Part shown: piece after piece, positions 1 through 40,846 of the stretch
How positions within the stretch are numbered: the first letter of the stretch is position 1
Layout: each line of letters begins with the position of its first letter
Origin: Rhizaria sp. SCN 62-66
Taxonomy: Eukaryota
DNA: 44,858 nucleotides
Direction: 5' to 3'
Assembly (NCBI GenBank): GCA_001724265.1
Contig: MEDY01000250.1
Coordinates: 1 to 44,858 of the forward strand
Translations under genes and position numbers: made by a program
Notes under the pieces: model-generated
Told to the model about the DNA's origin: nothing
Database searches by the model: none
The model's input: only the letters and a program-made list of their open reading frames with translations

Positions 1-96
1 GGCCCAGCCGATGCGCTTGTACTTGTCACCGTCGTGGCGGAGGAACGCCTTGGTGTGCTTCTTGACGATCTTAGGCTTGCTCACGGGAATGGCCAT
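1..96 (-). CDS. RPL32: 60S ribosomal protein eL32 (L32e), N-terminal 32 codons; the gene continues off the left edge
   Basis: The reverse complement of 96..1 reads ATG GCC ATT CCC GTG AGC AAG CCT AAG ATC GTC AAG AAG CAC ACC AAG GCG TTC CTC CGC CAC GAC GGT GAC AAG TAC AAG CGC ATC GGC TGG GCC = MAIPVSKPKIVKKHTKAFLRHDGDKYKRIGWA. This matches the eL32 N-terminal pattern KPKIVKKRTKxFxRHQSDRY. Codons are strongly C/G-ending, as expected for a highly expressed gene. Confidence 0.92.
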   Translation of the reverse strand, partial: MAIPVSKPKIVKKHTKAFLRHDGDKYKRIGWA

Positions 97-1077: not shown

Positions 1078-1200
1078 ATGATTACATCCTGTCTCATTCT
1101 GGCCGCGGTTGCGACAGCGGTGTTTAGCTGTCTTGTCGTGCTGCTTTTGCCACGCTTCCTCGCGCGGTATCTCATCCCCTGGCTAGTGCACACTCTCGCC
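1078..1200 (+). other. N-terminal transmembrane/signal anchor of the giant protein
   Basis: MITSCLILAAVATAVFSCLVVLLLPRFLARYLIPWLVHTLA is a hydrophobic stretch followed by basic residues. BLTP2-family proteins are anchored in the ER by such an N-terminal helix. Confidence 0.8.
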
Positions 1201-4200: not shown

Positions 4201-7200
4201 CAGATCCGTCCCCAGCTTTGGGGTTGGATTCGCCAGGCAGGCTTTGCTGTGCTGTCTGCAATTACAGCCTCGGCTGCGCTCGGCGACTCCCTGACACTGG
4301 GACGTCGCAGTCTCGCCCTTGTTTTGGGTTCGAATGATGGTAGCAGCAGCGTTGATGAGTGCGGAGACACTGTCCGTGCGAAATCGAGCTCAAGCGTTTC
4401 CGATGTTACTTCACAAGGTGTTGTCACCCCGCGCGGCGAGTCGATCCACGCGCTGTCCTCTGTGGTGAACCCCATCACACTCAGCCTCGTGTCTGTGCTG
4501 CGCAACACGTCGCTGCCGGCGTCTCATATGACCGATTGCGAGTGGGTCAAGCTGTGTGCGCACCACTCCGTGACTGCCACTTCGGCCGCCGCCAAGAGCG
4601 ACCGCTCTGTTGGGGTCGGTGCTCCGCAGTCGCGGTCGAAGGGGTACTTGCCCTTACACGCCTGGCCGGTGCAGTGGGCGCCCGCGCCGGCGCTGCTTGA
4701 CACCTGGCGTGCCGTGCGGCAAGCGAAGCTCGACGCCACTGCCGCGGCCGCTGCTGCTGTCTGCGCCTGCCGCTGCAAAAGCAGTGTCGACAACAAGAGT
4801 ACTTGTTCTCATCCCAACGCCAGTGCGGGCACGAGTGAGTGTACATGTAAGTGTACGTGCGCTGAAGCATGCGAGCCTCCTGTTGTGGTCCCTCTCCATC
4901 GCAACACGGCTTCGACAAACACGAGCAGCAGCAACTGTGATGGCGCTGTCGATTCTGATATTGCACCCATCACTACGGGAACAGTCCCCGTACCAGATGC
5001 TGTCGACGTTGTTACTGAGTGGTTCAACACTCCTCTGCCTTTACCGTTCTCTTTCCCGCACGGCACACATGCCGCCGCAGCGGCGACAGCGAAGCGGCTG
5101 AACTTTACCCCCGCTGCCCCGTCACCTCTGTCTGTGTTCACGCTGCCTGCGGTGACCGTGGACGTGGATATGGCCGTGACTGCAGTCTCCGTGTCGTACT
5201 ATACGGTGCCCGTACCGTTTGCGCCGTTACTTGCTTCTGCCGTCAGGGCTACGGACACTAACAATGCAAGCTACAGTTCCGGCACAGATGGTGTGCTTTC
5301 AGTGCTGTTCATGAACGGCCTCTCAGCTCTGACCGCGCCGCACCTGACGGCTCCCGCCGCTGCGACACGCGCAGCCGGTCCGCTGCCGCTTTTTTGTTCC
5401 GGAGCGCGTTTTGCACCACTCGATGGCATATTTTCGGAGCCGATGCTGCCGTTGTTCCCGCCGACACCGGTTTACGCCGCACCCACCGTCACGACCACTT
5501 CGAGTTCTGGCAAGAAAATTCACACTGGGAGTAGCAGTCTTGCTTCCGCTGGGCATGCGACAGACGTGAACACGGTGAACGTTTGCTACGTGCAGACAAA
5601 GCCACAGCGTATTGTCCAGCTTACCCTTGCCCACAGTCGCGTCACGACCCGGCTGAACCTGTTCACGCCCACGTACGCATCTGCATTCTCTGCTGCGAAC
5701 GCTGCCCTCTACCCGCTTGGCTGCGACAACAACGACACAAGCGGCGCCGTTCCCGGCGTTGCTGGAGCCTACTTACCTCCGATTGCGACCGCCACTCACA
5801 ATAAGACTATGCGCCCTGATGAGATTGCAAGTGCATACGAGCGTGCTGTTGCCGCAGTGACTGCGGCCGAGGCGGCGGTGGCTGCGGCCGCTACTGTTCC
5901 GGGCGAAGGTGCAGTGTTCGCGTTTGTTTTGACCGACGCGATTTGCGTTGTCGACGCTGTGTATTCGCATAATCACATTACCCTGAATACCTTTACCAAG
6001 CGTGGTAGTGATGATCGTCACGGTGACGACGAGGCGAGTGATGATGAGCACGGTGACGATGATAGTGCGAGCGCCAGTGATGGTGACGTTGAGCCGCAAC
6101 AACACACGTCTGCGACTGCTGTCGGCGCCGTGCCATCTGCCACCAATCACAGTCCCACGCGTGTTGGGATGAAGTTAGGTCGTAAGCGCTCTAACTCTGT
6201 TTCCGTTGCACCTTTTACGTCCACGGAGTCAGCCTCCGGTGTCGACGCTCACGAGAAGAACAGCAACAAGCACACTGTGCGTATCGACATTACATCTCCT
6301 GCCTCCACTGCGGGTGCAGCGACTGTCACGACTGCTAGCGCGGGGCCGCGAAAGGGCGCCGCGAACCGAGCATATGCGCGCTTCCGTCGCAACGCTGCCG
6401 CTGCTGCCGCTGACGCTTCTCAGAACTCGAACGCAAACAGCTCTGGATCAGCGGATGCGGATGCGCCTGTGCGTGAGTGCAACCGCCCTAACTGGAGTGC
6501 CGGCGTGGGAGAGAACGTGTACGCGTTCGAGCCTAAAATGCTGTTCTCAGTCCCGTCGGTTGTCGTGAGTGTGCCTATTATGCCTCCCAAGCCGCCGTGC
6601 CCGTGCGTCTACTGGACCTACGGCCTCGCCCACGGCAGTCCCAGCGACGCCAATTTGTCTGTTCGCGAACCGTGTGGCGCTGAGGCGTCGTCGTTTACGA
6701 GTGCGGCTGTTGAGAGTGACGACGAGAACGACAATAGCGGTGATAACGATGGCAGCCATAGCCCTAGCCCGAGTGTGCCTGACTGTCACCGCACTCTCCT
6801 GCCACCGCCGTCGCACTCTACGTCGCAGATGTCCCGCTCGGTCAACGATCACACCGATGCCATTTCGGTGCCATTCATCCCGTTGATCCACTGCGATTGG
6901 TGCACACACCTGCCCCCGCGCCCTCTGCCCCAGCTGCCCTTGATGCCTGGCCCGCACTTTTCGATTCCTTCCTGCCACGTCGCGTATTCCGTCGCTGCGA
7001 CGGACGCCGCGGTCAGTATCGTCAAAGATGTTTTGTCGTCGCTGCCTGGTGTGTTCTACTTCAAGGACCTCTCTGCGTTTGCCCCTGTGCTTATGGGTAC
7101 AGCCAGTGAAAGTACGATCATGACGAGCGCTCTGCGGCTCGAAGGCGACCCCAACTGGCCCGTTATTACCAAAGGCATGCCGCTGCCATCGCCAGAAATT

Positions 7201-10200
7201 TCTGATGTCTCTCTGTCTTCTGTCTGGGGCGAGACAGGTTTATTCCGCGATTCGCAGTCTTCTGGCAAGTCCACCACAGGAGTGACACGCAATGCACACA
7301 AACACCAGTTCATCCTGGGCATGACGACAGAGACGCGCGCATCAGAGATGCTGCACTTGCGGCTGCAGCATGTGCAGGTTGACTTGCCGACTGAGGAGCT
7401 CTCTGCGACACTGCTTGCTGCGACAGCTGGCCTTCACCCAACTCAACTGAGCAACACCGGCATTCATCGTGGCGGTGTTAACTCCACTGCAACTGCCGCC
7501 GCTGCTGCTGTTGCAAGCGCCTGCCCAAGCTTTATTAAGTCTCCCGTCGTTGCCGAGAGCGATAATATCACTTGTTTATACACGTTCGTCGCATCCGCGG
7601 TACACCTCAGCATAGACACCACTGTTGACGATTGGTACGCATATCTCTCGCACGGTGTGCTGTCGCGTGATGCGTCTCCGATGCTCACAGTTATTGACTG
7701 CGAACTCCGCGGCGGCGACGCGAACGTGCGCAGGGGTCCCATGATTCATCCCAACGTTCCGAACGACTTTGTGTACTCGCGTCGGCAGTCAGAGATGTGG
7801 GGACGGCGCTGGCACGAACTCTACGCAGTGATCCCGCGCACGCTTACGCTGCCGCCTGCACACGGTCACTCTCACGGCCATCGCGCTCGTGCTGTCACTG
7901 TGCCCGTTTGCGAGGCACTGCACGGTGGAACCCCGAAGTTTCTCGTCGCCAGCGCCCGCGGCTGTCGCCTTGTCGGATCACCGTCATTCTTCCCTTCTCT
8001 GCTGCGACTGATTGACCAGACCGCGAGTGTCATTGGTGGGATCAGGCAGACGATCTACACGATGCTCTGGCCTTACTGCCCGCGCGCGAAACATGTGTGG
8101 CTTGTCCAGAGGGTTGCGCACGCAGCAGCGCTTGCCGACGCCGCCGTCAGTGCGGCCAAGGCAAACTCTGAGTCTGGCCGCAGTAAAAACAATGCAGCTG
8201 CAGCAGTTGAAGCGACAAAGGCGGTTTCCGCGCTTGTTGGCAACTCACGCTCTTATGCGGCAACTGTTGCTTTGACGAACGTTCCCTCTCGGGAAGGCGT
8301 TGGTGCTGATGTAGAGCCGGTCTCTGAGACTGCTAAGGATGACTCACACGACTCTCACTGCATTACAAGTCTTAACGAGTACGATTTTACGCCAGGTTCT
8401 GGGTTATCCTCGCTGTCTGGAGTGCGTTTTATCTGTGCACGTGCTGCAGCGTCTGCTCTTGACGCTGAGGCGGATGCCCTTGCTCGTACTTTAGCCTCCG
8501 CGAGCTCTACTACGACTCTCGCTCTTCCTGTCCCTGCAGTTTCCACTCTTGCCCCTGCTGCACTGTCACCTGATTTGACTTTCTACCGTCATCCGATTGC
8601 TCTCGCCGTGTTAGCCGCTCGCAGGCACCCTCAGTTGGCGCAATGGCTGACGTGGCACCAGTCGTTGCGCGCGCCGTGGCTCGCCGACTCGGCGCTTCAT
8701 GTTTCACTAGACGCGTCTGATATTGCAGTCGAGCTGGCGTTTCCCACTGACAACGCCGAGGGCGAGATCAACGGCGTCTACCCGCCCACAGATGCGGCGA
8801 CGTTCCCCGCTGCCACCGCCGCGTCTGCGACGGCACGTCGAACAGATTCTGACTCGGGTGCTTTCATTTCAGCTCCGACTTCTTCTGCAGCTTATGGTGC
8901 TGCTGCGAAGTCAGGGCGCAGTATGTCTGTCCGGCTCCCGCCTTTGCCGCGGCCTGCGCCGATTGCGCTGACAGTTACTGTCGGCCGCTTCCAGTCATGG
9001 TGCCTGCCCCACGCTTTCCGTTTCGAAGACGTTGGTATTACGCTTGCCAACGCCGTGCGCCCTCTCATAACTGTGGGCTGCGTGACGATGACGCGGACTG
9101 GATTTGTTCCCGCGTTTCTTACTGCCGCCTTCAATGAGCCGCTCTCGTTTCTCGGTGAAGGATTCTTGGACTTGACACTTGATATTGCACGCGTTCGGCT
9201 GAATGTGTCTTTGCGCACACCTCTGCGCCACCTGGTTCCTGTTGTTGCTGACAACATGCTAAGTTTGTTCTCAGCACTCTCAACCACTGTACCCTCTATT
9301 GCGTCGTACTCTCTGTGTCGCGGTGGCGCAGGCTATACCGGATTCCCGTCTCTGCCGTCTCCCAGCATCTCGCTCGCTCTCGCGGACTGCGCCGCGGTGG
9401 CCGAGGAAGAGCCTCTCGAGGAGTGGCTTCGGCGCATCACCCCGGTCTGGGGAGTCGAGCGTCGCGTGCAGCTTCAGCGCGAGCGCGTGCTCGAGGTCGA
9501 GTGGCGGCGCATAGTTGAAGTTGAGAAGGCGAGCCATATCCGGGCTGTGCTGAGTGGTCTCTATGATGATATTGCGCCTGTGCCTGTTTTCGCAGCTCCC
9601 GTTGTGAAGAACTTCACTCCTTCGCCGTCTGCTGTTGCTGCCGCTATTGCTGCTGCCACCGCCGCTGCCGACTCCACAGCAGATGCTGCCTTGGCTAAAC
9701 GTCCAACCGGCTCAACTCCTTTGATGCCGTCGTTCTCTAAGCAGCTCACTGTTGCTTCCGGATTTACGAACAGCACCGATGCTGCTTTTGCTTCGAGTAC
9801 CACCAGCCCGCCAGCACCATCGCCGCGGTCCTTGTCTCCGCGCGCGCGCAACTCACTGCCTCTGTCTTCCCCCAGAGCGGGGCCCCTCGGCTTCGCCCCT
9901 GGATCGCCGCGCACTCGTGTTTCCGTCTCGCTTGCTCCCCCATCTCCGCTTAATATTGCAAAGACTAGTGGGGCCACACAAGACGAGGATGATTCCATGA
10001 ATGCAGTTTCGGCTGAGGGTGCGATGCCCGCTCTCCCGAAGACTCCAGTCAAATCGAGCCCTGTCGCTGGTCGTGTGGCAGCACCACCGATGTCGCCAAC
10101 AGCGAGTGTAAGCAACACCGCTGCCGGCCGCGGCCGCAGTCTCACCGTATTGTCAGCTCCTTGCCCTGTGCCGCTAGCGCTCGTCGAAGACGATGATGAT

Positions 10201-13200
10201 GACGACGACACGGGTGCTATCACCCCTGACACTGGGGCAAAACCAGCTTCAACTCCTGACAGTGGCGCTAGTGCTGCAGAATCCACAGCGGCAAAGAACA
10301 AGGCGGAGTTGTCTATGAGCTTGCTTAATCTCAACGCAAGCAACACGGACAGTCGACGCGATTCCCGCTCGATTTCTAAGAAGATGGCTGATCGAAGCAA
10401 CACCCCGCCCAGCAGCAGCAATGCTGACGGGAACCTACATAGCGAGAACGACGACGCCTTTGAGAGTGCTGAGACAGCTGCGGCACGCGCTGCAAGCACT
10501 GCAGTTGCTGACGCGCAAACTCTCCTCGCTCTGCGTGCTCTGTTTGCAGCATCCGAAGTGAAGCCGTTTGATCCAACATCACTATTTATCTCATCCACCA
10601 TCGGTCAAAACGTGTATCAACACAGTGAAGACATTCTCGGCCCATCTCTTGCTTCAGCTGCCGCCAACGCTGCTGCAGCTATCAACAGCTCGACTGGCAC
10701 CGGCTCTGCCACTCGTGCACCGCTTAATGGCAGCAAGGCACTGCCTGATAGCATTGAGTCTCTTTTAAACTCTGCCAAGGCCGAGGGCTTTAGCGATAAG
10801 AAGATGCGTAAGCTGCTGTCTAAGTACCACGCTTTCAACCCCCGCTCTCCCATCGTCAACCAGCAAGCTGGCGGTCTCAGCTCGCCGTCGCCCCCCAGTG
10901 CAACGAGTGACGACTCGTACGCGGACTCACCGCCTGGTGATGCAACGATTGCCAGCGGTGCTGCGGCATCTTTGCGACGCCCCACGCTTGAGCCAGTGAT
11001 TATGACTCCGGAGCTTCTTGACAAGATCGTGAATCACCCTCTGTCGACAGTGTTCCTGGCACGACTCCTCGCCCGGCGCGCCCGCATTAACGCGCGTGTG
11101 CAGGCCAAAAACTCGAGCGAGTATCAGGCCCGCGCACGCGGCGTGTTCTTGCGTTTGCAACGGCAGCGTACGAGCGACAAAGAGGCCGATGCAGTCTCCG
11201 CCGTCAGGCTCAAGGCCGCTCCGCTGATCGCCATTGGCCCGGAGGAGGGCGGTCTCGGCCACGCACAACTGCGAAGGCTTTGTGGCGGCAGTAGCGAAGT
11301 GCTATCGGCAATCTCGACCGCGACCGGAGGAGCTGGTGCGGGAATTCCCGGCGCCGAGGCCGCTGCTGCGGCTGCTGCTGACCCCATCACTGTCAACGCG
11401 AAGGCATTGCGCGTTGCGGCTAGAGCTAAGAATACCGTTGCAGATAGGCCTGTTGCCGCGTCGGATGTGAATGGCTCTGCTAGCGCGTATTGCACACAAC
11501 ACTGCCTGCCGTTGTATCTCGCATATTCGAGTGCAGCCTATCGCGTGCGCCACAACCACCATCACCATCACCATCATCATCAACACCACCGCAACCATAG
11601 GGCACATAGTAGCTCCGTTTCCGACTCCGCCCAGTCCGCTGCTGCAGTGGCGATGGTCTTGCCGTCGTCTGCTATTAGTGCTTGCTCACGTCCATTGGTA
11701 TTACTGCGGTATGCTTTACCTGTGGCACCCGCGAACGGCTATTTCTATGGCCCCATTGCTGCTCACGCTCGCTCCGTACTTCACTTTGCCCAGTCTGCGA
11801 CTGAGATGCCCTATGCGTTCTACGGGCATTCTCAGACACTCCAGACTGCAGTCGCTGCCGCAATCAGCTCCGTCGCAAAGAACTCTGCTGCGGTCTTTGC
11901 AGCACGTGATCGCAACGACCGTGCATTGCGTGAGCGCCGGCGTGCCTTGCGGAGGCAGACGAGCATGCTGCCTACGCCCCCACGTTTCCCTTTGCCGCCA
12001 CAAATTTCTGACCAGACCGAGCTCGGAGCTTTGAGCCCCGATTCCGCAAGCACGCTCGCGTCGCCAACAAAGACTGCTGAGAGCGCTGTTCCTGGCGCGG
12101 TTAGCGGACTGATCCGGACTATGCACGCTGCTCGTGGTGACCGCTGCGGTGTCAACGCGGACGACTCTTGGCACTTAGGCTCGTTTCACTACGCGCCATC
12201 ATGCAGCGGCGGTCTTTACGCACAGACTCACCCAGGTTATAATGCCAGTGCGACTGAGACTGACCACCGTGCACCTGCCGTTGCCGCTGCTGTGCTGCGC
12301 CGTGACTCATCACTCGCTCCGCTTTCTTCTTTCACCGCCACTGCGGCGCTGACGTCGCCGTTCACAGCACGTGTTGCAACGACTGCACGCGAGCGTCGGG
12401 TGTTGACGGTTACGAATACCAACGGCAGCGCGAGCGCGGACGCCAAGACAAACAACACAGGCACCGAGAGCAAACCTGTATGCACTGCAGTTGTGGTAAG
12501 TTTTGCAGCTTCTGCGTCTGCGACTGAACTGTTCCTTTTTGGGACCTCTGCCTCCGCACTCACCGCTGCGCCGGTTGATGCCCGCAACTATCTCACAGTT
12601 CCCCTGTTCCCGGCAACGACTGTGGCCCGCGTCTCCAGTGGCGCAGTCACAGCGGCTATCGCGCCCCGCAGCGGCCCCGCTGCGTCCTGCTACCATCACG
12701 TGATCGGACTCTATACGGAACCGGTTGCGACTACAGGCCGTGGTACTGCTGTTGCAGCCGCAGCTGCTGTCTCTAAGGCAGTGCGCGCGGTAGCAGTGCG
12801 CGAAGGTTGCCGCTGTTGCGGTGCGTTCACCGCGCTTGGTGCAGGTCTTGGTACTGTTGCAGGCGCTCAAGGTTCCGCGACTGCTGATGTCGGCGTCATT
12901 GACTCGGCGTTACCCCCGTTGATTCCGATGCTTTCTGTCGAGACACATATTCAGGCAAAGACAGACTCTGAAGGAGACAACGTCCGCAGCAAAGCTTGCG
13001 CCGCAAAGACGAGCTCCACGAATGGATCTCGTTTGTTGACAACTAACCAAAGATGCGACTCCCCTACGGTAGCAGCAGCTGCTGCTCTTCTGGCAAAGGC
13101 TGCGGGCGCAAGCGTTGACAAGAGTTCTGCGACTGAGGCACAGTGGTTGCCTCACCAGGGCCTTTCTGTCGTTGCAGCTGGCGTCGATGCCGTGCTTAGG

Positions 13201-16200: not shown

Positions 16201-19200
16201 GCTGACGCGGATTTTACTGCATATGCCAAAAACAACCTTGCAGCTGTCATGACTGGCGCTGGGCCGTACCCTGCTGTTGCCCTGGCTAAAGAAGCTGGGT
16301 TTGCACTTCCAGATATGCCTATCAAGAGTGTTTGCGCTGGCTGCGGCCACTATCCGGAGGCAAAGAAAGGGTCCGGAGCATGTTTGAGCTCTGAGACTCT
16401 GACCAGAAATGGCACCAACAACGACAATACCGGTCGTAAGTCAAAGGACACTGTTGCTGCCGGCCGCGATCGAAGCAACATTGTCACAATTGATCTCTTC
16501 ACCCAGACTGTGCCATTCCTAGTCAAATTTCTATCACGCTACCTTACGACTACCGTTGCTGCACCACTCGTTTCGTGCCAGCCTTTGGTCTCTGTGCGCC
16601 GAGCTGGTACGCAGGCGGAGTCAGAGTCAGGTGCTGCACTTTATTCGTTGTTGTCACAGCGCGCAGATAAGCTTTCCGTTACGAGTAGTAGTTCAACGGC
16701 TGCGGCCGCAGCTAGCTTTGATGTAAGTAGCCACAATACCATTTCTGGATCTGATGCGTACGACAATGAGGTGATGCAAGCTGATGGCCTGCGCTTCCGT
16801 CATCACAGTGACATATACGACAACAACGATCAGGACAACAACCACGACGATAGCATTGCCTCTATCGAAGGCGATCTTAACGATACGATTGACGACGGCG
16901 ACGATAGTGACTCTATATCATCCCAAAGCACCGCGTCCGCGACCGACTTGGCTTCCTGGGACGCATCGTTTAGCCTTAGTCTTGACGCATTGCCTCCCGC
17001 TGCTGTCACCGGTGACAACTCGTTCGATATGCCTCGTCCGGAGGTTCTTATGCACGCAGAGGCACCAACTCTTAGAGTGGTCAATGGCCAAAATCTCCCC
17101 GCGTTGCAGCTGACTCGACAGCGGTCCTCGAGTGAGACCTACGACAGCGCTTCAAGCAAGCACCAACAGCCTGATGATCGCATTAACTTAACTCCGACGG
17201 CGACTGCATTTGCTACTCCGACGCGCTCTCGTCCCGGTCTCCACATAACTCTCGGAGGTGTGCCAACTAGCCCGACCACAAGCTATAAGCGCTGGAACGC
17301 TCTTTCTGAGGCTCAAAACCAAGTGCCGTTACCAGGACCGACACCACGGTATCAGCGACAACACGCGGGTCCAGTTGCAGTTCCAACTGGTGCTGTTCCA
17401 ACACCGTCAGAGGATAACAACCGATCCACACGGTCACCGCTCACGGTCACCGTTGTGCGACTTGGCTCTGTCCACGTTGAGCAAGTCACGGTCGGTGCTG
17501 TTGCAATGACAGTATGGGGAAGTCAGCCTGATACCCCGTCACGTGGAGTTGTAGTTGGTGTTGAAAGTGTTGCATTGCGTGTTGTATTGTGGGATGATCA
17601 AGTGCGTGACATGTGTGTTCGCACATTGCTTGCTTCCCAGCAACTTCACCAACAGCAGAAGCAATGTCAGTATTCAACTTCGTCAGCTGCCGTTGATACT
17701 GAGCTGGACCCACCTGCGTGGTTGCCGCAGCTGGGTGGTGGTGAGGCCCTTTGGTCCTCGATCGTTCCATCTACACGTGTCCGCTCTGCATTCTTTAGTG
17801 ATATTGCACACTCTCTCCTCAGCAACACCACGTTCACGAGCTCAAGTGCACCTTCTGAGCAGGAGGCTGTTGATGCGGTGACCGACGCTGCTACGGTTGT
17901 GTCGACGAGCTCGTGTCCATTCCCTATCCCTCCAGCCACACATACGTTTGGCTGGTTGCGCACAGCGCTTGTGCCACTTCCTCTCCCACCTCTATGCATT
18001 GCGACGCACGAGGCGCCTTTCGGAAGCGTCACCGCACTTCCACTCGCGTGTCCTGTTCTACTGGGAGAGCAAAGGCTTGCACTCAAGGCGTGTCGTAAAC
18101 TGCTTAAGGTCGGTGCACCTGTTTTTGTGGTGCCTGATTCATGCACAAATAAGTCGCATCATGATGCGAGTCAACGTGCGTCGCATCATGACGCGAGTCA
18201 ACGTGCGACGGAGGCTGGCGCTTCTCAGTCCAAGTTTGAGGCACCACCGAGCAGTACCCGGGCAGCGATGCGCGAAGACTGGTCATTTGCAGAGCTACCA
18301 AAAGCAACTGTCACTGACGCTGATACTGCCACTCCCAGCTCTGTTAGGCAACTCCCGACGTCCTACGCTTTCGGCAGCAATCCTAACGCCACCGCTGGTA
18401 ACAAGACCATTGCAAGCAACGCCGAAACGTCCCCAACGCACAGTCTTGCGTCGTACTTGCCGCAAGACAGCGACTTTATCTTGGCGCCATTGCTTTCCCC
18501 GCTCCCTGCGCCAACATATTCACTATCTGCGCTCACTCACTCGGCGTCCGGTGTCAAGGTTGCCGTTGTGTCGACTGTTGCCCGTCGTCGCGCTGACGCA
18601 GCAGTCGGCTCAGCATGGGCCCGATGGACATCGCCGGACTGCACGATTGTCGCAACATGGGAAAACGAGCGCCATAACCTGGGTCGCGGCTTCTCAAAGC
18701 GTTTCTTGCTCCCGACTGATCGTCCTCACTTTAGCACACAGGATGGCGATCGCGCACTGCCGCGTTCTGCTGTGACGCTGCCATCCTCAGCATGGGTGTG
18801 GGAAACACCTTGGATGGTTGACACACTGATTCGCGAACCCGGCACTGTGGACGCGGAAGGGTGGGAGTATGCGCACGATTTCCCACGTCAGTTTAGTGGA
18901 ACCGAAGCGTGGTACTCGAACGTACGGCGCAGGAGGTGGATTCGAGTCCGTCGCCTAGTTAACCCAGAGAGTAGAGACACGGTGTCTGCTAAAACCGGCT
19001 TTACTAGCAACAGCGTTTCTTCGGGCGCTCCAGTTGGCGCACAGCCGAGCGATTTTATTTCGCCTCAGTCAAGCACTGCTACTACCCAGCCTCATGCAAG
19101 CCCCACTACTGCGTCTTCTACTGCAAGCCGTGCCGTCAATGAAGGATCGAACACTGGCGCTCCCAATCTGGCGCAAATGATGTTGCCAAAGGGGTTGATC

Positions 19201-22200: not shown

Positions 22201-25200
22201 TTTTTAACTCCAGCCAACGGCGAGCCAGATTCTCTCACAGACGATGTCAGTAGTGAGTCAGTTACAAGCGCTATGTCTTCCTTCAGCAGTGGCAGCGAGT
22301 CTGACGCAAACTCCAGCTCTACTGACATTAGTGACAGCGATTCTGGCAGCCGTTCGGACAGCGAATCTTCTCGCACCGATAATTCTAGCGACGATGACGA
22401 CAGTGGCTATCGTACCAGTAACACGCACGCATCGAGTTTTTCCGGCAGTCGGTACTACACTGCAAAGCCAACGGCTGGTGGTGGAAAGACAAGTCGCATT
22501 CCGCGTAAAGTAGCCCGACCTACTTCGACCGCTGCAGCAGTTGCTGATACTCCCCACAGCACAAAGGAAGTGTCTGTCTCGTTTTGGCTTGCACACCAGC
22601 GCCGTCGTGTACGTGCTGCTGCGGTGCGCTGTATTCGTTCATCTACGGTCACTGAATTCGAACTTCAACAGCAAAAGCAACATTGCGCCACAACCACTTT
22701 AAGCGCTAAGACGCTGCAACCTTGGCCTACGCGCAAGACTCGCGAGTTCACCACAACGCCCGCGACGACGCAGATTACTCGATCCCACGATAGCCATGCT
22801 GGAGCGCGTGCGATGAGTCCCCCCGGTCCGAAGTCCGTGGCTGGAGTGCGTTACGCAGCTCGCGTTGCCGCGGCGCACCGCGCTTTGCTCGCCCTTTGCG
22901 GGCGGTGTGGTGGTGTCGGGTATGTCACAGCACCGCGGGGAGGACTTGAGACGCAGGGCCCTGGTCGGCTTGAAGCTATGCGCGATGGTGATGATGCTGG
23001 AGTGATCGCTGCTGTCCAAAACCTTGCTATGGTGAGCAAGGGCTCAGGAATGTTTGCGGGACTTCCGTCTCTCTACTTGCGTAACATCTCCACGGAAGGT
23101 ATTGTTTTAGCTGACACAGACACTGATAACGGATTCATCAAGACCCACTGTCACTTTGACAGCGATGAGTTCAGGGAGAACGGCCACGACAGTGTTTCGA
23201 GCACTGGTGCTAATCCTGATGTACGCTCTGTTTTGGCCGACTTGGATCACATTTTCAGCGGCTACCCGACTGTGGCAGCTGATGTAAGGTACCTGGTTAC
23301 CAGCAACCCTCTAACTGGTGGCCTGCAACATGAAGCTATCGACATGGGCTCTAATCTCAGTGCGGTTATGGCAGCGGCAAGCAACAGTAATAGCAGCAAA
23401 AACGATGCTCATTTGAGCGCTCAAATTATGCAGAACAATAATGATTCCGGGCATAATAGCATCCGACGTGGCCGCCGGTCTAACGGCATTTTGGCTAGCA
23501 CACTGAACAACGCTGCTGCAATCGTTGCTTCACTATGGTCGCCTGCCTCCTCACCACACAGTCGTACTGTGCATGGGTTGTCTCCCACCGCAGCTGCAGC
23601 TCTGGCTCTTCGTGACACCGCCGCGCGCGCAGCGATCTACGCCACTCCCGTCAGTGCGGGTCCTATCCTGGAGGGCGTTGCATTTAGTCCAGAAGAGACA
23701 ATCGTTCCCTGTCCGCTGTGCCGATGCTCAGCTGGCTCCATGCGTCGCGTAGCTGCGAGTTTGTCTGCCATTGGTGTTGGACTTAAACACTTTGCATTAC
23801 CTGCTGATAGCAATGCAGAGGCTGTCCTGAGTAGCCCGATTGAGACGAGCCCTGGTGGCGGTGGCATCGCTTCTGGAGATGCATTTACGACGACTGGCGA
23901 TGTTTGCGATCAGGAAGAGAAGGATGACGACAACACACTCAACGACAAAACAAATCCCCGCCACGGTCGTAAGGCGAAGGGTTCTTCCAGCCGTTCACTA
24001 GGTACGGAAGACCTCCACTCTGCAGACTTGACTCATAAACAGGAGTCAAATCTAAACATCACGCATAACAACAAGTTTGGCCAAATCCACCATAAGTTGC
24101 CGTCTGTCCCTGTGCCTCTGACTAGTACAAGTGCGACGACGGGGGCTACAACATTAGGCGTTAGTGCTGGATCTACTCGTACAACACAACAGATGGTGAC
24201 TGTCACTCTCCCTCAACGTCTACAGTGCACTGAGGCGATTTTTTCTTTCAATGTCACCGACGCTCAGGCTCAGCTGGATCACCGTGAGGCTCGTGCCCGC
24301 GGCACACTGTTATTTGCAGTGCAACAGGTCGGCTGTGTCATCAGGAATGAATGGGTAGCGCCTGTGCGCGTCTGGCCCGCTGCTGCTGTCACTGGTGGTA
24401 CTGATCAGACGGTTACATTTAAGACAAGTGTGATCACAACCAAGGGGATCAGGGGAAATGTTCATGATAGCCGGAGCGGTGTAACTTTAAACGCCGGAAC
24501 TAAACATAGTCACGACCAGCCTTCCCGCCCCTTTGCGCTTCCTCTTCTTCCTCCTGTATTGGCCGCTAAGACTGCTGCTTTGGCTGACTGTTTAGCGCGT
24601 GCGATTGCCCCACGTGTGTTTATGCTTCCATCTGCGCTGCATAGTGTTGCACCGATGTTGACTGTCACGGCAGCACAGGTTTTTGTTACCGCTGCTGATG
24701 TTGACGTCACATCTGGAGTCACATGGTACACTTCACCCGCTGCTCCTCAATCACGGGATCGCATGCGCGATAGTCTCTTCACAACAGCGGTAGACGTTAT
24801 TATGGCTGCTACTGCCGCCACAGCGGCTGGCAGCTCCGCCGCAGCAGCGCTTTGGCAGGTATCGCGTTCTGCTCGTGCAAACAACACCACGAGGTCGTCT
24901 CGTCAGCGGTCTACTGTACTTCGCCGTGCAGCAAGCAGCGGCGGTACAACCCCACAGGTTCCATCACCCAACGACGGTCGCACTAGCTCTTTGGCTGCAG
25001 CACCCATTGCTGGTCCTGCTAGACTCGGAGATGACACCTTGAGTGGCATTGGCGCACGTGACGTCGCAGGTGTTGAAGGCAGTGGAAATAGCACAAGAGT
25101 TGGGGGGAGCTTTGTGCACAGTCACTCTGGTGACGCCATCGACAACATTACTCCCCGTGATTCATCTGATAATATCGCTGCGATCCCTCTCGCCAACGTC

Positions 25201-28200: not shown

Positions 28201-31200
28201 GCTGTCTCTCGTGTGCTTCGGTCAGACGCACGGCAGCGTGCATACGCACGACTTGCTGCAGCACCTGCAGTCGCGACTGCTGAAGTAACTGCTGCGGATT
28301 CCAGCGAGGTCAAGCGTGTGATGAAGAAGATCTCTCATGTAAGGCTATGTGCCAACAGCAACGATGCAGCGCTGCCCAACAATGTCGCTACATATTGGTA
28401 CAACACTAGTGCGCAGTCCTCCAACGATGCCACGGCAGTGTCAATATCGTCGTTAGTGCCCACTTCAGCCATGCTTCCTGCGGCCCGCGCTCTCCTCTAC
28501 GATCCCATCAAGGGTGGGCCTGCGCTTGATGATGATGAAATCTCGTTCATTCTTCTCACAGTGGAGACAAACGAGGCAATTGCTACTGAGAACATGTTAA
28601 GGCGTACCCAGCGACGCGCAAAACGCCGCCAGCTTATGATGGCGCGTCTCTCTGGTGCACCATCAACTTCAGCTGCATCCGCCTCGAACAACGTCAACAT
28701 CGACCCCGAGGACTGGTCTGATCATGAAGCAGAGCGTGTTCTGACGCCAGCTGCAGCCGCTGCTCTTATGACCGCAGCTTCTGCTTGTGCGCCGATTGAT
28801 GTGACTCCTGCATTGAAACCGCGTCCTGCCAACGACGAGTCGAATGCGACTAAGACTGATGCGGCGCTTGCAGCATTTGCAGATGAAGTTCTCTCCATCA
28901 CAAGTGGTATTTCCACATATCAGCGGTATCAGGCGATCCGGTTGCAGGGACAACTGCGCAGGCACGCTGTCAAGGCTGCGAATGCTCGGGCTGCTCGACG
29001 TGATGCGGCCCGTGCTCTTGCGAATACCAATGACAATATTAGCATGAGTCTTGACGCGCCACCCCCTTTGGTCACCATAGTATCTCCACCCCGCTCTGAC
29101 AAACTACACCGCGACCCTGCAACTGATCAGAATGGATCAGCCTCTCTATCACAAGCAGATAGCACGAGTTGTCTGTCAGGCACTGCTCCCCATGTCGCAC
29201 TTAAGCCGTTGTCCATTGACCGTGCTAACAGCGCATCAACGGCGAACTTGTGGGTTCCTGCCGCAAGTGACAAGTGCCCAGTCGCAGACGCGTACTTGGC
29301 AGCTGCAATGGGCCGCTTATCCATGCGCGGTGGAGCTGCAATCTCACTATCTGCTGGTGGACGTACGTTTGATATCCACACGAGCTGGGTTGATAGTGAC
29401 AGTAGCGAGTACCTCGAGTGTGATATTGATGATGGCGACGACGAGGGTGATTTTGAAAGTGACGGTAATGGCCCGAGAACTGTAACTGACATGGGGATGG
29501 GTTCCGCGCTGAGTGGTTACCATTCATTTTCAAGTACGAACTCTCCGATTGAGTCGAATAGGCATACGTTTACCGGTAGTGCTGCCTCTGTTGCTGCATT
29601 TTCGCCAAGCTTAACTGCTGCCAGTACGAGTTCTCTTACTACCCCGACACTTTCGAGCGCACACAAGGCAAGCCCACAGGTGCTTGCACGTGGTTTCGCA
29701 ACACGCAATCTCCTTGATACCACAACAAGTCGAAATGAAAACGTGAGCTCGCCAGCTATCGGGGCCAGTCGAGCGCTAGAGCAAGAGCGTCGGCGCAAAC
29801 TTATGAAGCGTTATCGTCGTCATGCGGCCGCTGCCGCCCGTCGTGTTGGGCTCACTAGTGACAACGACGTTGGAGATGATGGCGAACTGTCATCAGATGC
29901 GTCATCTTCTGATGATGACGACGATGACTATTTTAACACTGCTGGCATTGACCACAACAATGAAAATGGTGATGACGACGATTTGCTTGAGAGAATGCTA
30001 TCTGACAGCGACCTTGAAGAGTTACTTAGCTCTCCGGACGAGCAAACCCCTGCATCGCCTTCTTTAGGATCTGCTACACTTCGCACTGTTGCTGCAGTTG
30101 CATCATCCAACGCAACTAAGGCAGCCACCGCAGAGACTATCTTTGCCCGCCGTCGTGACTTACTCGCAGCCCTCGGACGCAACCGTGCGGGCCCCAACAC
30201 TGCCGCTTTGGGGGCTGAGGGTCCAGTCAGTCACGCCTTAGCTACCGGCACAGGCACAGCACGTAGTGCACTGCTATCTCGTGCTGACCGGATGCGTAAG
30301 ATGGTATCGCAGCGCCAACGCCGTGCTGCCGCCATTTCGTTGTGGCAATCTGCCACTACGCATGTATCAAACACGGTTAGCGCTGTGATCGATCCTATCT
30401 GGCGCATGCAGGGGTTGTTAGGAGCGATTGAGCAACAAATGCTTGCCGTACGCACGCTGTTGCGTTATCGCGCAGCTGAAGCCGAGGCAGGTGTTGTTCA
30501 TCCATCGGAAGCTGCTAGTACGACTGCAAGCAGCACGAAGCTTGATTCTAATGCTTCTGCAACAATGGGAACTGCTGCTACGACTGGAGCTATCAATGAA
30601 TCCACGCCACAGGCCTTGTCTCTGACCGCAGCCGTATCCGCATCGCTTGTATCTGCAGACCCTACCGCATTTGGTGTTAAGCCAGCGTCGTCCGCAGCGA
30701 CAGTTACGCCTGGGCAACAGTTCCAGCAACTACAGCGGCGCCGAGGTACTGTCACTAAGGACTCAACTTTGAGCGACAGTAGTGCGCCTGTCGGTGGGGT
30801 GAATCGTGGGGGGCTCTATCCTGCGCACACTAACCTGAGAGACGTTGTCAGTGTAAGCACTAATAGTGATTACGACAAGGTAGAGAGCAGTGGCGATAGT
30901 AGTCGAGGCGGTGTGACTTTCTTAAGTGGCCACTCAGCATTTGTTGGTAGTCCACTTGCTGATTATGAGCACAGTGGCAATGCCATGTCATCTTCATCAG
31001 CGCTATCTCGCGCAGCTGGTGTACCTTCGAGCGTTCCGTTAGTCGCACCCAGTGGTGCGTATGAGGGAGGATGGCGCGATCAAGTCTCAGCCCGCCCGTC
31101 TCTCAATCAAGGACAACCACCACATGCAAGCAATGCCGAGTTTGCCGCAGCAGCAGTCGCATGCGCTCAACAGCAGCACCAGAATAGGGGCTCTCACATC

Positions 31201-34200
31201 TTTGGCGCTGGTCTGTCTCGCTTACTACTGCTCCCTGCTGCTACGGCTGATGAGATTGATGCAATTGCTGCCGCTGAAAGACTTGCTGCGGCTGCTGCTA
31301 TCCAATCGGTTGCCCAATTGCCATCCCAGGGATCGTTTTTTGTCGTCGACGCTGGCGCAATCACAGAACACGCCGTTTGTAGAGACTGTGGCAGTGCATT
31401 GCAACCCACTGTCGCGGTCAAGCCGACAACGGCGACTGGTACTTCGAAGTCTACTGCAGGCGTTGCAGTGGGCAGCAGTAGTAGCGCACCGTCTGGTGCT
31501 AGTCTGGGCGCGACGTCTGGTGGTAGTCAGTCGGCCGATGCAGCTGTGTTCTTCACGCTTGCACAGTCTCGCAACGCATCTGCGCTTGCCGCGCCAACAA
31601 AGGCTCACCCTGCGCCAGATGGCACGAATTCAATCGAGCAACAGTCGCAGGCGTCGTACTATCAGCCGACTATTGCGAATGTCAGCGAGTTCGTGCTGAT
31701 GTGGCTCCCACCTGCGCCATTACCGCTGCATAACATTGCCTTTAATCTCACGTTGGACTCCGTCTCGTTACTGGTTCACCGTGAGAGCGATGGCACGCCG
31801 TGGATTGACGCTACACTTGCCGGCGTGACAGTTGGCGTTGGCGTCGATGCCGCTCTTGAGCAGACAACTGGAGTCACCGTTCAAGTACGTGATTTAGTTG
31901 TCATGGACACTACTGCGCCGACTGTTGTGACCGACCGTTTCAATCGCCACGATCCAGGCAAATGGCGCGTGCTCGTCGGGCCCGATCCTGCAGTCATTGC
32001 TGCCAATGCCGCTGCTGCTGCCGCTGAGGCTGCTGCCATGGCAGCAGCGACTGCAACTGCAGGCTCCAATGCAAACATGCAATCTCGTGCTTCGAACCCA
32101 CTCGCGATGACAACATCTCAGACCCAAATGAAGGCGCAGGCGCGCGCATTTGCTCGTGCACAGAAGAACGCAACGGCGCGCTCACGATCGATCACAGCAG
32201 ATTCCGACTCTGAGTCTAGTTCTGATTCCGAGTCATCGGACTCTCACTCAGATTCTGATCCTGACGGTACGAATATGCGGCCAGTTAGTGACACGGATTC
32301 TGACATTGAAGAGGGTGCAGGCAGCTGTGTACGCAAACGTCCAATGCCGGTGACTGCGGTCGTGACAAAGGCGTGCGATGCCGCAGCGCTGTACGCTGCG
32401 TCTAGCCACAACTATCGCATCCCTCCACCTCCGCCTCTCACTTCGAGGTCTCTTGCGCTCATTGCTAGCGCGTCTACTGCAACCTCCCGTGCGAATACTG
32501 CACTCACAGTGCATTTTACATGGCGCCGCGAGATTCACCCACGCATTGTAACCGCTAAAACCACGTCTGAACTTCACAAGGAAAGTGCATTAGCAGCTGC
32601 AGACTCGCTGCCACCCACTATCGGCACCAGCGGCGCACTTTCTCCTCTCGTTTACCCAACGGCTGCGAGCTATAGCGCGTGCGGCAGCGCAGCTGCTGCT
32701 GCGCTGAGATACACTCTCGCGCCCATTTCTGCTGCGGTGACTGCTCCTGGTGTTATCGCGAGTTTGCGGCACACATATGATTCATTCTACTATGGACCCA
32801 GTGCAGCCGCATCCTCTGCTGCAACTGCTGCAGCGGCACGTGCTGCAGCGGTTGCTGTCGCTAACAGGTCAGGAGACGAGAGCAGCACCAGCACCGGCAC
32901 CGTGAATGGTGTGTGTAGCAACCCGGCGTGCACCGGTCAGGGCTCTCGCTTGGTTCCTATCGGAGTCGCAGTTGCTCCGCCAACTATTGCAACGAACGCC
33001 GCTGTTGCCGCAGCTGCTGTTGCTACGAGTAGCAGCAGTATGTACCCGTCGGCGCAGGTCTCGAGTGCGACCGCTACCGCAGCTGCCTCTGCCGCCAGTG
33101 CCGCTGCAGGCGCGACTGCTACCGCGATGGCTCTGTGCGTCCGGGCGCGCAGCGACTTTGAACGACAGTTCTTGGCGATGACGACTGCGGCGCGTGTTGC
33201 AAGTGGTCACTACGCTAACGCAGAGGAAGCTGCTGTTGTGCCTACCGTCACCTCGCTTGCTCTTGCACGACTGCTTGCAGGTGGAGATACGAATCACATG
33301 TTCACAGCCTCCGGTAATGGCGAACTCTTTTTAACGCGTGTGCTTGAGTCTGTTGTCGGTGCCACTGTCAATGCAGGCTATCAGTGGGTTCCTGACATCG
33401 GCTTAGTCAAGTCGACTCATGTTGTAAACACTGCACTCTTGACTGCAACTATGAAGCCAGATGAATCCACCGTCTCCACAGATTCTGCTGGTGGAAGGTT
33501 AACCCGCGCCCGTGCTGCTACAACGTGGGCGCCACCGACACCGATAGCTGTTAATGCGACGACTAATGAGGCCACTGGTTCTGTTGTTGGGTCCTCTGCA
33601 GCGGCGAACGCAGATCTGGCGTTAGGCCTCTGTGTCCTGACAGTCGTCGCGAAAGCACGTCTGCGTGCAGTTGCCAGGCACCGTCGTCGCACAGCAACGG
33701 CAGCAGCTGCATTCGCTGCTGTGGCCGCCGCAGGTGCAGCAGTTGCGGCAGCTGTAGATGGCCACGGTGGTGAATCTCAGGGTGCCGTGTGCGTGCCGAT
33801 GCTGCGTGGCATTGTCGGTGGCGTGTATTGCGATCAAGTTGCGACATCACGTGCATTGACAGTCACGACTCTGCCATCTTCATTACACATGAGTAGTTTC
33901 GGGACGACAGTTGGGTTTACGGGCTGTAATGGTGGCGGTAGTAGCAGTGTTATGCAGAGTTTAATAGATTCGTACTGGAGCGATCCAATCGCATCTTCGA
34001 CAGCCGCAGCAGTTGCGTCCGCTGCCTCTGCTACTGCAGCTGCCAATGCAGCGATTTCGGCTGGCAAAGACGGTAAATGCACTGCTGCAGTTACCTCCGC
34101 TGCTGCCAGTGGCTGTCTTGCTTACATGATCAGCAAGGTCGAGGCAGTCTCTTACTCGTTTATTGAGCAATTGTTATCCAGCATGCCTGCGAATGCTGCA

Positions 34201-37200
34201 AACGCAACGACAATGTGCGGGCGTGGTGCTGGTGGCCTCACCTCAGCTGCTCTAGCTCTCGCGTGTCTGCGGAGGCCCAAGGCTGTTACGCTGAGGGTTG
34301 TTGCGCCATTCGCCTTACCGAAGGCAATCAACACATCTTCTATTGATCCCACTGCTTCAGCGGCCCTTGCAGCTGTTGTGGGTAACGTTGCAGCCGCAAC
34401 TGCGACGAGCACTACAGCTGCTTTTTTTCCATCGTCAAGCGGAAATGGGCGTGCCTCATTCAGTCAGCTTGGTGCCCAAGTACTTAACCAGCAAAAGCAA
34501 CAAGAACAGGAAAGTGCGAGTGCCGCAGATTCACAGTGGCTATTGAATCTTCCAGAGCGTTCTTTGAATGGTGGTTTAACTATCATCCGAGGTCAAGGTA
34601 TGCTTGCAATGACTATGGCTGAGGTTGCTCTACGGCCCTTAGAGGTCCGTGTAACTGGCGCTACAATCGGCGGTATGATTGCGTTTGTCACAGGTTTGAT
34701 CGCCAAGCTCGAGTTCCCAGACCTTAGCAATCTTGACGCTAGTTTGCTGACAACAGCTACACTTGCATCACTTGCTCCATCTGGCAGCAAGAGTGCCGCA
34801 GCTAATGCAGCTGCAGCTGCAGCTGCAGACGCACGCCGGATGTTCCTTGGTCGCAAGTGGGCGAAGCGCCTGTCCGTGCCAGTCATTGAGCCATCTGTCG
34901 CAGTCACTCGGGCGTTTGCAGGTATGACTCTGCAGCCTAATGCAGCAAGTGTTGCAAGTAGCGGAAGTGTGGATACCACGTCATCTAGTTTGCTCACAGA
35001 TGCTGGTGATGTTCAGACTGGAAAGCTAGCTGCTGTTCCAGCGAGTCGCCGGACACAGGCTGGTTTAACCTTCAACGACGTTGGCGAGAACTCTGCATCG
35101 CACCATTTCTTTGAGGATAGCGCGTTTGATGCATTCTTCCTTCCATATACCGGCCAACTTCTTGCATCTGCGCCATTTACGCATCGCTTTACACGGCCAG
35201 TGCTGCAGTCTGCCGACACAGCAAACAAGGATGGGGCACACCCAAGTCTGAACACTAGTAATATTGCAGATGTTGCACCTCTGACCAACGCAAACGCAAT
35301 GACGCCGACACAAATGCTACTGGCGCTTGGTACGACCACAGGTGTCCCGCCCCTCAACAAGGATACTGCTTCTCTCCTGCGCAGCTTCTCTGACCCAACC
35401 TTACTTGACAAAGCGGCTGCTATTGCAAAGGTTCAGGGTGCAGTTCCAGCGTCTGTGACTGCAGGCCTGGCCGCGGCTCTTGGCCCTGTTCTATCCGCAC
35501 CTCAAGCATTGCGTCATACCCGGTTCCTGTCTCAAATTCCTGGATCTGCGGCGATGCTTGGCCCGATTACGGCGGTGGAGTCCATGGCGATGCGTGCGCT
35601 TCGGCTCACCGTCACCACACTGCCTACGGCGCCCGCTGTGATGGATGCGGCGACTCGCTTGACTGCGAAGATGCACGCAGCGAAGTCATACGGGGTTCTT
35701 TCGCCAAATAGTAACCCGAACGCGCAATTGGCGTATAGTGGTCTTGGTGGGCTGGGTGGTGGTGATCTCGGTGGGCTTGATTTGCTGCAAGTTGAGTCAA
35801 CAAGGCAGGCCAGTATGGATGACCTAACTGCGATTGAACTTGCCTTTGGCGCCAAGACAGCTGTATTGTGCCAACTTTGGGGCGGCGCAACATCGACTGT
35901 TGTTGCTCCTGCTGACCTGCGTAACACTCGCCATTGCATGAATATCATAGCGACTTCTAGCACGAGCGCGGGGACGAGTAACCCGTTCTATATGCTGCAG
36001 CAACTCCCGCCACAGGCTGAAACACAAGTACACGGCCAGACACAGATGCCTGATCTTACTCCGCGGCCTAACCACGCGAGGCATCTTAATTTCTCTGCCA
36101 TCAATGGGTCCCACAGCATGGGTATCACGACAGCAGCGCCTGCACCGTCACTACCGACGTTACCTTCGCCGATTTCCCTCAGCATCAGCCAGGTTTCCAG
36201 CAACGCTAATCTGCACTACGCAAGTGGACAGCGGACAGTTGATGGTGGTAACGACAACGGCCAGAATGAAGTTTCTGTGAGCAACCTTGCTCTTGAGGTT
36301 ACTGCTTCGTCAGCCCAGGGCGATCGCAGCCTTAATATGCTCACGCAACAACCGCAGGAGCTACAAAGCAATGAACGGACTGAACCTGATAACGACGGTG
36401 ACGATGACGACGAGGACGAAATTGTTGTAAGTACGTTTCCGCAAGTCTCTGTCTCCGGGCACTCCCAGCAACCTCAGTCGCACTCACCAGCGGTATCTGC
36501 TACGACAGTAACCAGGACCAACGCAAGCTCAAGCGCTGTCCCTGCGCTGCCCACTGCGCCTCGTCCCCGGCCGATCGGAGGCTTATCTTCTGCCGCCGCT
36601 GCAGTGGCGACAACTGTGCGCTTTTCGCCGAATCGCCGCGTGCCGACAGTCCCGGGGCAACCAAGAACTTCATCTTTGATCACAGTTTCTGGAAGTAGTT
36701 CATCGAGCGGAAACACTAGCAACACTGTCTACACATCGGGTGCAATGCCAACGATTCGTGGTGTTCCTTTAATCTCGCTCACACCGCCGCGCAGTTTGTG
36801 CTTGCTGTACGAGACTGTTTTTGCAGCACCGCCGGTTGCGGCAGAGATCAGGAGGCTTGGCTCAAGGGCGTATAGTAACACAACATCGAATGCGCTTGCT
36901 TTCGCAAGCAAGAACAACAGCCTCGCTACTGGATCTATCCCGACTGCTGCAGGCAATGCTGCCACCGATCGACTGTTGTCACCAGCAGGCACAAGCACCA
37001 AGCCTAATTCTGGTTTGCTTTCGCCAATGTCCCAGTCGCAGTCGCGCTCGCAATCACAAGCGCTTCCTTTGCTGTCCCCGTCGGGACAAGCTGAGTCACC
37101 TTCTCTCTCGTACTCGCGTCCGTTATCTCAGCCGCCAGTTCCGCCTCGTCTGCAGCAAGGGACATCAGAGTTTCAACAACCTGGTGCAGCTATTAACGCA

Positions 37201-40485: not shown

Positions 40486-40584
40486 ATGGCAGGCATTGAA
40501 GTCGCGCTAGGAATTATTTTGTCGGTCATCTCGTCCGCATGTAGTGCCCTAGCAAACGTGCTAATGAAAATTGGCCACAACAAG
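40486..40584 (+). CDS. NIPA-family (DMT superfamily) putative Mg2+ transporter, exon 1
   Basis: The ATG at 40486 gives MAGIEVALGIILSVISSACSALANVLMKIGHNK (33 codons), resembling NIPA TM1 (GxxLxxxSS....xxK). It ends exactly at AAG|GTCCGT in phase 0. Not in the ORF track. Confidence 0.85.
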
Positions 40585-40846
40585 GTCCGTTGGTCGCCCT
40601 GTACCAAACTACGATCCGATGTTTCTAAATGAAACACCAAACGATCGACAATATCACTGCTCCGCAATATTTCACAACTATGCTAATCTAGATTTTCACT
40701 TACAAACATTTCTCCGATAGCGTATCTCTTCTTAACTCTGCCTTCTTGCATCTGCCCTATGCTCACTCCCACTCCCGAACATTGACCAACCTGTTTCCCA
40801 CCGATCTCCCCGTTTATCTCGCATCGCCATGCCTCGCTACTCACAG
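40585..40846 (+). other. GT-AG spliceosomal intron (262 nt, phase 0) in the NIPA-like gene
   Basis: Donor AAG|GTCCGT, a C/T-rich interior with stops, and acceptor ...ctactcaCAG|AAA. The join is in frame with ORF 40829..43729 and restores the missing TM1. Confidence 0.85.

Follow-up and report, generated by a model that had tools for sequence, protein, structure and literature searches.

A 39-kb open reading frame most likely encodes an enormously enlarged relative of the BLTP2/Hobbit proteins that carries a DysF domain

Proteins of the Hobbit family, which includes Hobbit, FMP27 (Hob1/2), BLTP2 (KIAA0100) and SABRE/KIP/APT1 and corresponds to Pfam PF10344 (a model of 2,372 positions with a curated cut-off of 24.5 bits), are rods of about 12 repeating beta-groove units, and the family has been described as having few accessory domains. 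VPS13, ATG2 and SHIP164 are organised differently; they start with Chorein_N, without a transmembrane helix, and carry VAB, ATG_C or PH accessory domains. BLTP2 mediates bulk lipid transfer at contacts between the ER and the plasma membrane (PMC12270902, PMC12406788). As set out in the text of Levine (2022; PMC7613979), amphipathic helices cap RBG multimers, transmembrane helices start both Hobbit and Tweek, and the length variation of the Tweek/Csf1/BLTP1 family is attributed to disordered loops; Tweek homologues, at 4,203-5,093 aa, are given there as the longest known of the bridge-like proteins for lipid transfer (BLTPs). The protein described here, which we call the giant, shares with the Hobbit family a single N-terminal transmembrane helix, a C-terminal block that appears homologous, through two intermediate relatives (P0004 and P0002), to model positions ~2033-2342 of 2372, a putative helix, basic and amphipathic, that closes the ordered part on its C-terminal side, and an arrangement of short conserved blocks with variable loops between them. 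It differs in being about 5.5 times longer than the Hobbit model (12,980 aa versus 2,372 positions), in bearing a DysF domain, in consisting of spacer for about two thirds of its length and in being too divergent for a direct profile match. We consider it probable that the giant belongs to the Hobbit/BLTP2 family and acts by the bridge mechanism inferred for it below.

The window that we analysed, meaning the whole stretch of 44,858 nucleotides, has on its forward strand a frame listed as stop-free from 997 to 40020, whose first ATG lies at 1078, so that the gene (1078..40020, + strand) is a single open reading frame of 12,980 codons plus a stop. Each of the other five frames has 286-724 stops over the same span, equivalent to 22-56 per 1000 codons, and a 39-kb frame is therefore not open by chance; this confirms the original prediction of one stop-free 39-kb frame starting at 1078. 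Proteins from independent assemblies agree with the frame at both ends: two (P0003 and P0005) are identical to aa 1-1049 and 1-1053, with the same starting methionine, and a third (P0001) is identical to aa 12634-12980. The protein is 16% alanine, 12% serine and 8% threonine. Tandem Repeats Finder returned only 10 rows on the gene, the longest of 55 bp and every one with a period that is a multiple of 3, and a self-BLAST with a low-complexity filter gave no internal matches at E<0.01. The near absence of tandem repeats, together with the lack of internal repeats, argues that the length of the giant is not the result of a recent repeat expansion. GC3 along 1078-40017 is 0.70 at the 5' end, drops steadily to 0.45 near 24-28 kb and is 0.56 at the 3' end. 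Taken with the homology described below, the frame most likely encodes one membrane-anchored protein of 12,980 aa that is a hugely inflated relative of BLTP2/Hobbit.

The transmembrane helix covers aa 6-24 (LILAAVATAVFSCLVVLLL; 1093..1149, + strand) and has a mean Kyte-Doolittle score of 2.9; no other 19-residue window in the giant has a mean above 2.2. After it, aa 29-46 form an amphipathic segment (muH 0.463, 98.5th percentile) that contains a proline. Near the other end of the protein, within the C-terminal core block, which is conserved in both P0002 and P0004, aa 12712-12729 (RVISRLLGQTGTVVRQWI) have a muH of 0.667, the third highest among all 18-residue windows of the giant, and a charge of +3. 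Assuming that this stretch is helical, it would be a basic amphipathic helix placed after the last groove unit, as in Hobbit.

No profile of any BLTP family matched the giant directly. PF10344 gave no match at E<=1 in any of three large pieces, none in 45 tight hydrophobic islands and none in five C-terminal pieces, and it was absent from the 25 listed families among the 29 that matched 65 windows of 400 aa, the other four having E>0.55. The Pfam profiles for Apt1, VPS13, ATG2, BLTP1 and Csf1 were likewise without a match in the same pieces and islands, and among the families listed for the windows. The last 1,000 aa retrieved nothing in a language-model search of the Atlas, and a PDB search with the first 4,500 aa returned only His-tag artefacts. 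A histidine run, HHHHHHHHQHH, lies at aa 3494-3503 (~11557-11586 of the window) and produces false PDB matches to His-tagged constructs.

The connection to the Hobbit family instead runs through two metagenomic relatives, one compact and one inflated. The compact relative, P0004, is a protein of 1,471 aa from a 65-kb metagenomic contig that was found by searching with the DysF region of the giant, and it has much less low-complexity sequence than the giant. It starts inside the DysF domain, six residues before the motif GWEYAHDFPR, and is 74% identical to the giant over 23 aa. Residues 485-1243 of P0004 match PF10344 with E 1.9e-17 and 62.2 bits, against the cut-off of 24.5, and the best stretch of this match pairs residues 860-1223 with model positions 2033-2336 of 2372. 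The match appears only when this ordered stretch of 759 aa is searched alone; the whole of P0004 gave no Hobbit match against Pfam, and we infer that its low-complexity tails caused the HMMER filters to drop the full-length protein. Since low-complexity sequence was able to hide a 62-bit match in this way, inflated proteins of uncultured eukaryotes are likely to be under-annotated.

Five blocks occur in the same order in P0004 and the giant. The first is the end of the DysF domain (aa 5928-5950 in the giant; the phmmer alignment of P0004 6-47 with giant 5927-5968 has iE 3.4e-15). It is followed by aa 7716-7763 (24223..24366, + strand; P0004 503-550), where BLASTP gives E 0.64 and the block counts by colinear order only; by aa 7863-7888 (24664..24741, + strand; P0004 586-611), which is borderline, with a phmmer iE of 0.03 (P0004 586-609 on giant 7863-7886) and a BLASTP E of 0.049; by aa 11173-11203 (34594..34686, + strand; P0004 992-1022), which falls inside the Hobbit-matched region of P0004 and, with a BLASTP E of 2.6, again counts by order only; and by the core C-terminal block, aa 12681-12736 (39118..39285, + strand; P0004 1178-1233), with iE 1.2e-5. 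Outside DysF only this last block is significant individually, and three of the five are not. The shared signal nevertheless exceeds that of shuffled sequence: P0004 485-1243, with the DysF part removed, scores 14.0 bits against the giant, and none of 300 locally shuffled giants scored above 3.2 bits. A profile built from the C-terminal blocks of the giant and P0002, which we call A2, scores 20.2 bits against P0004 1177-1232, with none of 1000 shuffles above 4.8 bits.

The inflated relative, P0002, is a metagenomic protein of 1,631 aa. When the last 1,000 aa of the giant were compared by phmmer with 1.84 billion representatives, only two proteins were returned, a fragment of the giant itself and P0002 (E 9.2e-23). 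P0002 aligns by phmmer with aa 11462-12852 of the giant in several colinear blocks (iE 2.4e-34, 9.4e-7, 4.7e-4 and 8.8e-30). The first pairs aa 11462-11956 (35461..36945, + strand) with P0002 222-703, at iE 2.4e-34 and a BLASTP E of 3e-15, and the last pairs the C-terminal region, aa 12574-12852 (38797..39633, + strand), with P0002 1349-1602, at iE 8.8e-30 and the E of 9.2e-23 in the representative library. Overall block spacing is 1,277 aa in P0002 and 1,283 aa in the giant, and from this near equality we conclude that P0002 is inflated in the way that the giant is. The top Pfam match of the C-terminal block of P0002 is also Hobbit, at model positions 2287-2369 (E 0.043) or 2287-2342 (E 0.018, 12.5 bits); this match is below the Pfam cut-off of 24.5 bits and lies in the same place in the model as that of P0004. 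Because the equivalents in P0004 and P0002 both match PF10344 there, the final stretch of the Hobbit model probably has its counterpart in block 12681-12736 of the giant.

Membership of the BLTP2/Hobbit family is thus supported by transitive homology for the C-terminal half of the giant. This upholds the family assignment of the original prediction through the P0004 and P0002 intermediates, and for that half; a direct profile match was not obtained. Similarly, of the roughly 15 blocks that had been proposed to be colinear with BLTP2, none has a direct PF10344 match, and what stands is the colinearity of five blocks with a Hobbit-positive relative. Two of the three blocks that had been named individually, at nt 24658 and nt 39115, fall on blocks conserved with P0004 (aa 7863-7888 and 12681-12736, respectively), and there is no direct Pfam match at these two or at the third, nt 14446, which lies outside the parts covered by either relative; on the terms set by the original prediction, this lack of direct matches would refute it. 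No further relatives emerged from a word-indexed search with the C-terminus of the giant among proteins of 5,500-17,500 aa, nor did metagenome contigs yield any when scanned with A2 or with P0004. A PDB search with the A2 profile produced only a chance match (E 9).

The DysF domain occupies aa ~5853-5960, of which ~5860-5960 correspond to 18655..18957 (+ strand). It matches Pfam Pex24p (PF06398) with 28 bits (cut-off 26.8), over aa 5853-5956 and only positions 244-358 of the 358 in the profile; among the 65 windows of 400 aa, Pex24p/DysF was found in two, with a best E of 5.6e-8. DysF is exactly what Pfam returns for the giant, in line with the expectation that automatic annotation would call only this domain. 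In the PDB the domain is closest to TECPR1 (8p5p, E 1.4e-15 over ~100 aa), followed by dysferlin (4cah, E 4.7e-6) and myoferlin (2k2o, E 4.8e-4), and a PDB search with P0004 found only the TECPR1 DysF. A complete DysF domain is what the giant has in common with TECPR1, dysferlin and myoferlin, and the Pex24/Pex30-type peroxins. Unlike in those peroxins, no reticulon-like membrane region was found in it, and it has no second hydrophobic helix; unlike the ferlins and TECPR1 it has no C2 domains or tectonin repeats that we could find. Since both the giant and P0004, which are only distantly related, keep the domain, it is not an artefact of chimeric assembly. DysF seems to be an accessory domain that this subfamily conserves, and the original prediction had not treated it as such. 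Literature searches found no paper linking a DysF domain to any BLTP; apparent matches to 'dysf' in BLTP papers proved, in those that were checked, to be the word 'dysfunction', and the string occurs zero times in the text of Levine (2022; PMC7613979).

The position of the DysF domain bears on how much of the giant is a bridge. Evidence of homology is confined to the part downstream of aa 5,850; the N-terminal 5,850 aa matched no family, and the first 1,500 of them, used as a query, returned only fragments of the giant itself. Hence it might be argued that only the C-terminal part (DysF plus ~aa 7,700-12,750) derives from Hobbit, with the N-terminal ~5,850 aa being a different module fused to it, such that no continuous bridge would extend from the ER anchor; the N-terminal part also contains 2,560 aa of hydrophobic islands, which is more than half a Hobbit needs. 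We think this unlikely. A lone N-terminal transmembrane helix is itself a feature of Hobbit and Tweek (PMC7613979), and in P0004 the DysF domain lies ~855 aa upstream of the residue that matches Hobbit model position 2033, which would place it in the middle of a family member of normal size. If DysF sits in the middle of such a protein, the N-terminal half of a Hobbit is expected upstream of it.

The inflation of the C-terminal half can be gauged against P0004. From the end of DysF to the C-terminal block there are 1,227 aa in P0004 and ~6,800 aa in the giant, and single gaps are up to tenfold larger in the giant; the gap between the last two blocks, for example, grows from 156 to 1,478 aa. 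Conserved blocks in the giant are up to ~3,300 residues apart (aa 7888 to 11173), and about two thirds of the protein is spacer rich in alanine, serine and threonine. One possible reading, which had been raised as the alternative to added loops, is that further groove modules are concealed in the added sequence and that the bridge is longer than those of known BLTPs and spans an unusually wide gap. Hydrophobic islands free of low complexity do add up to more in the giant, with 1,680 aa as against 820 aa in P0004 over the region of P0004 30-1233, and with 4,500 aa in the whole giant. On the other hand, self-BLAST detected no internal repeats at E<0.01, and ~5,100 of the ~5,580 extra residues in the P0004-equivalent region are spacer by the same island measure, which is a crude one in a protein rich in alanine, valine and leucine. 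We regard hidden modules as improbable, and favour a Hobbit-type rod of ordinary size with inserted loops. A normal core with added loops, as originally proposed, fits the C-terminal half, given the expansion from 1,227 to ~6,800 aa without internal repeats; the 1,680 versus 820 aa of islands leave some room for modules. Structure prediction with AlphaFold2 without an alignment had a mean pLDDT of 32.7 for aa 1801-3000 of the giant and was alike, at 31.7, for the Hobbit-positive stretch of P0004, so that these low values do not bear on the fold. The hydrophobic moment, compared with local shuffles, showed no enrichment of amphipathic beta periodicity (largest z 1.73), in a crude test that had no positive control.

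Sequencing runs provide information on the integrity and expression of the gene. Of the words sampled from 35000-44858, 88% or more occur in four runs from three bioreactor or wastewater metagenome studies, and all 30 bins of 24900-44858 are covered in two DNA runs (X2 and X4). Contigs from a polyA metatranscriptome (X6) match 25236-25443, 30814-31157, 33372-33630, 33637-33873 and 39447-39857 with 0-1 differing letters; all fall inside the open reading frame, in both spacer and tail regions, and joints were seen in none of the RNA runs over 24900-44858. These contigs are weak evidence that the giant gene is transcribed, being short, from one polyA library in which DNA carry-over is possible, with none spanning a long stretch; those parts of the frame that no RNA contig covers carry no information on expression. 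As the RNA support is so limited, it could be supposed that the frame does not yield a single protein, and is instead read as several transcripts from internal starts or belongs to a decaying gene. This seems to us very unlikely, because a stop-free frame of 39 kb needs purifying selection along its whole length, because P0002 keeps the inflated layout at 37-48% identity, and because the only length difference between samples inside the open reading frame, over the 24900-44858 that were compared, is an insertion of 9 bp after 26323 that is in frame. This insertion is carried by run X4 and lies in a spacer, as a length polymorphism that preserves the frame.

The remaining question of family is which type of BLTP the giant most resembles. 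In a language-model search of the Atlas with P0004, Hobbit clusters took ranks 1-3 (0.84-0.85); the next family was BLTP1, first seen at rank 10, with BLTP1 and Csf1 clusters at ranks 10, 21 and 23 (0.78-0.81) and VPS13 clusters also lower. Of the best 10 among 30 clusters, one has no common Pfam domain, and in the other nine at least some members carry one of the RBG family. All of these scores (0.78-0.85) are under 0.9, with 159-161 shared features, a number below that typical of genuine family members, and we treat the ranking as a lead only. The giant resembles Tweek, Csf1 and BLTP1 in having an N-terminal transmembrane anchor, which lies in the ER in that family, and in the amphipathic segment that may follow it, but differs in that neither it nor its relatives match the profiles of that family, in that BLTP1 ranks below Hobbit in the Atlas search with P0004, and in size, the largest cited member being ~5,100 aa. 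Membership of BLTP1/Tweek/Csf1 rather than BLTP2 is very unlikely, since the features in its favour (aa 29-46 following the transmembrane helix as Levine describes for Tweek, the BLTP1 and Csf1 clusters in the Atlas list, and the record length of Tweek homologues; PMC7613979) are set against a proline within aa 29-46, a significant profile match of P0004 to Hobbit only, a top match of P0002 to Hobbit too, and no match to the BLTP1_N, BLTP1_M, BLTP1_C or Csf1 profiles in the giant, P0002 or P0004. A place with VPS13, ATG2 and SHIP164 is similarly at odds with a protein that starts with a transmembrane helix and has no VPS13 or ATG2 Pfam match.

Given its assignment to the Hobbit/BLTP2 family, we propose that the giant works most like BLTP2/Hobbit, and by analogy with these proteins it would transfer lipids. 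Its domain and helices are called from the sequence, and the other steps of the mechanism are drawn from the known behaviour of the family. The single N-terminal transmembrane helix would anchor the protein in the ER, and the short conserved hydrophobic blocks would form the repeating, lipid-carrying beta-groove. At the far end, the last block closes with the conserved, putative basic amphipathic helix, which may touch the acceptor membrane. TECPR1 detects exposed sphingomyelin (PMC10476172), and the DysF domain of the giant, whose nearest match is the sphingomyelin-sensing domain of TECPR1, may add a site for sensing lipid or membrane partway along the bridge. The alanine-, serine- and threonine-rich spacers between the blocks would loop out of the rod without lengthening it.

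The kind of protein, a member of the Hobbit family, is already known; what is new here is a probable member that bears a DysF domain and is inflated to an extreme degree. If the assignment is correct, no BLTP of greater size would be known, the largest cited otherwise being ~5,100 aa (PMC7613979), and the giant would reveal the amount of loop insertion that a beta-groove rod can bear. It would also add DysF to the accessory domains of the BLTP superfamily, and the likeness to TECPR1 suggests that some bridges may read the lipid state of a membrane by means of a built-in sensor. A stronger proposal is that the giant represents an undescribed Hobbit/BLTP2 subfamily, and the largest BLTP, in which a lipid-sensing DysF is built into the bridge, the rod of one lineage contains more than 8,000 spacer residues, on a scale conserved between species, and the spacers have a function. 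In that case the spacers would not be neutral bloat; they might form an exclusion brush, say, or contain extra groove modules that produce an unusually long conduit. We hold this proposal as a whole to be unlikely.

The giant gene is flanked by two other genes. At the 5' edge of the window, on the minus strand, are the first 32 codons of a gene for ribosomal protein eL32 (1..96), which runs off the window; the fragment matches eL32 chains in the PDB (E 2.4e-6), and eukaryotic eL32 chains in general. This gene is divergent from the giant gene, with a spacer of 980 bp between them that has a GC content of ~50%. Downstream, on the plus strand, is a gene for a NIPA-type magnesium transporter (40487..43729), which matches Pfam Mg_trans_NIPA with E 4.5e-24 from position 50 of the 295 in the profile. 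As read from the sequence, it has a probable exon 1 at 40487-40585, an apparent GT..AG intron at 40586-40846 and an exon 2 that extends to the stop at 43729. The main exon encodes 966 aa, and an insert of low complexity, several hundred residues long, separates the membrane halves of the transporter. The apparent intron, probably spliceosomal, and the presence of the sequence in bioreactor or wastewater metagenomes speak against a trypanosomatid as the source. Because this neighbouring gene is inflated, and P0002 is inflated on the same scale as the giant, the source seems to be a eukaryote from a lineage in which proteins tend towards inflation. No Rfam families or tRNAs were found in the whole window, including 44214-44858 and 31560-32225. 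These two intervals have a raised summed contig depth in the DNA runs, of 167-181 and 35-79, respectively, as compared with ~6 elsewhere; the internal jump at 31560-32225 may be due to cross-mapping, and the jump at the 3' end of the window points to an element that is multi-copy or widely shared.
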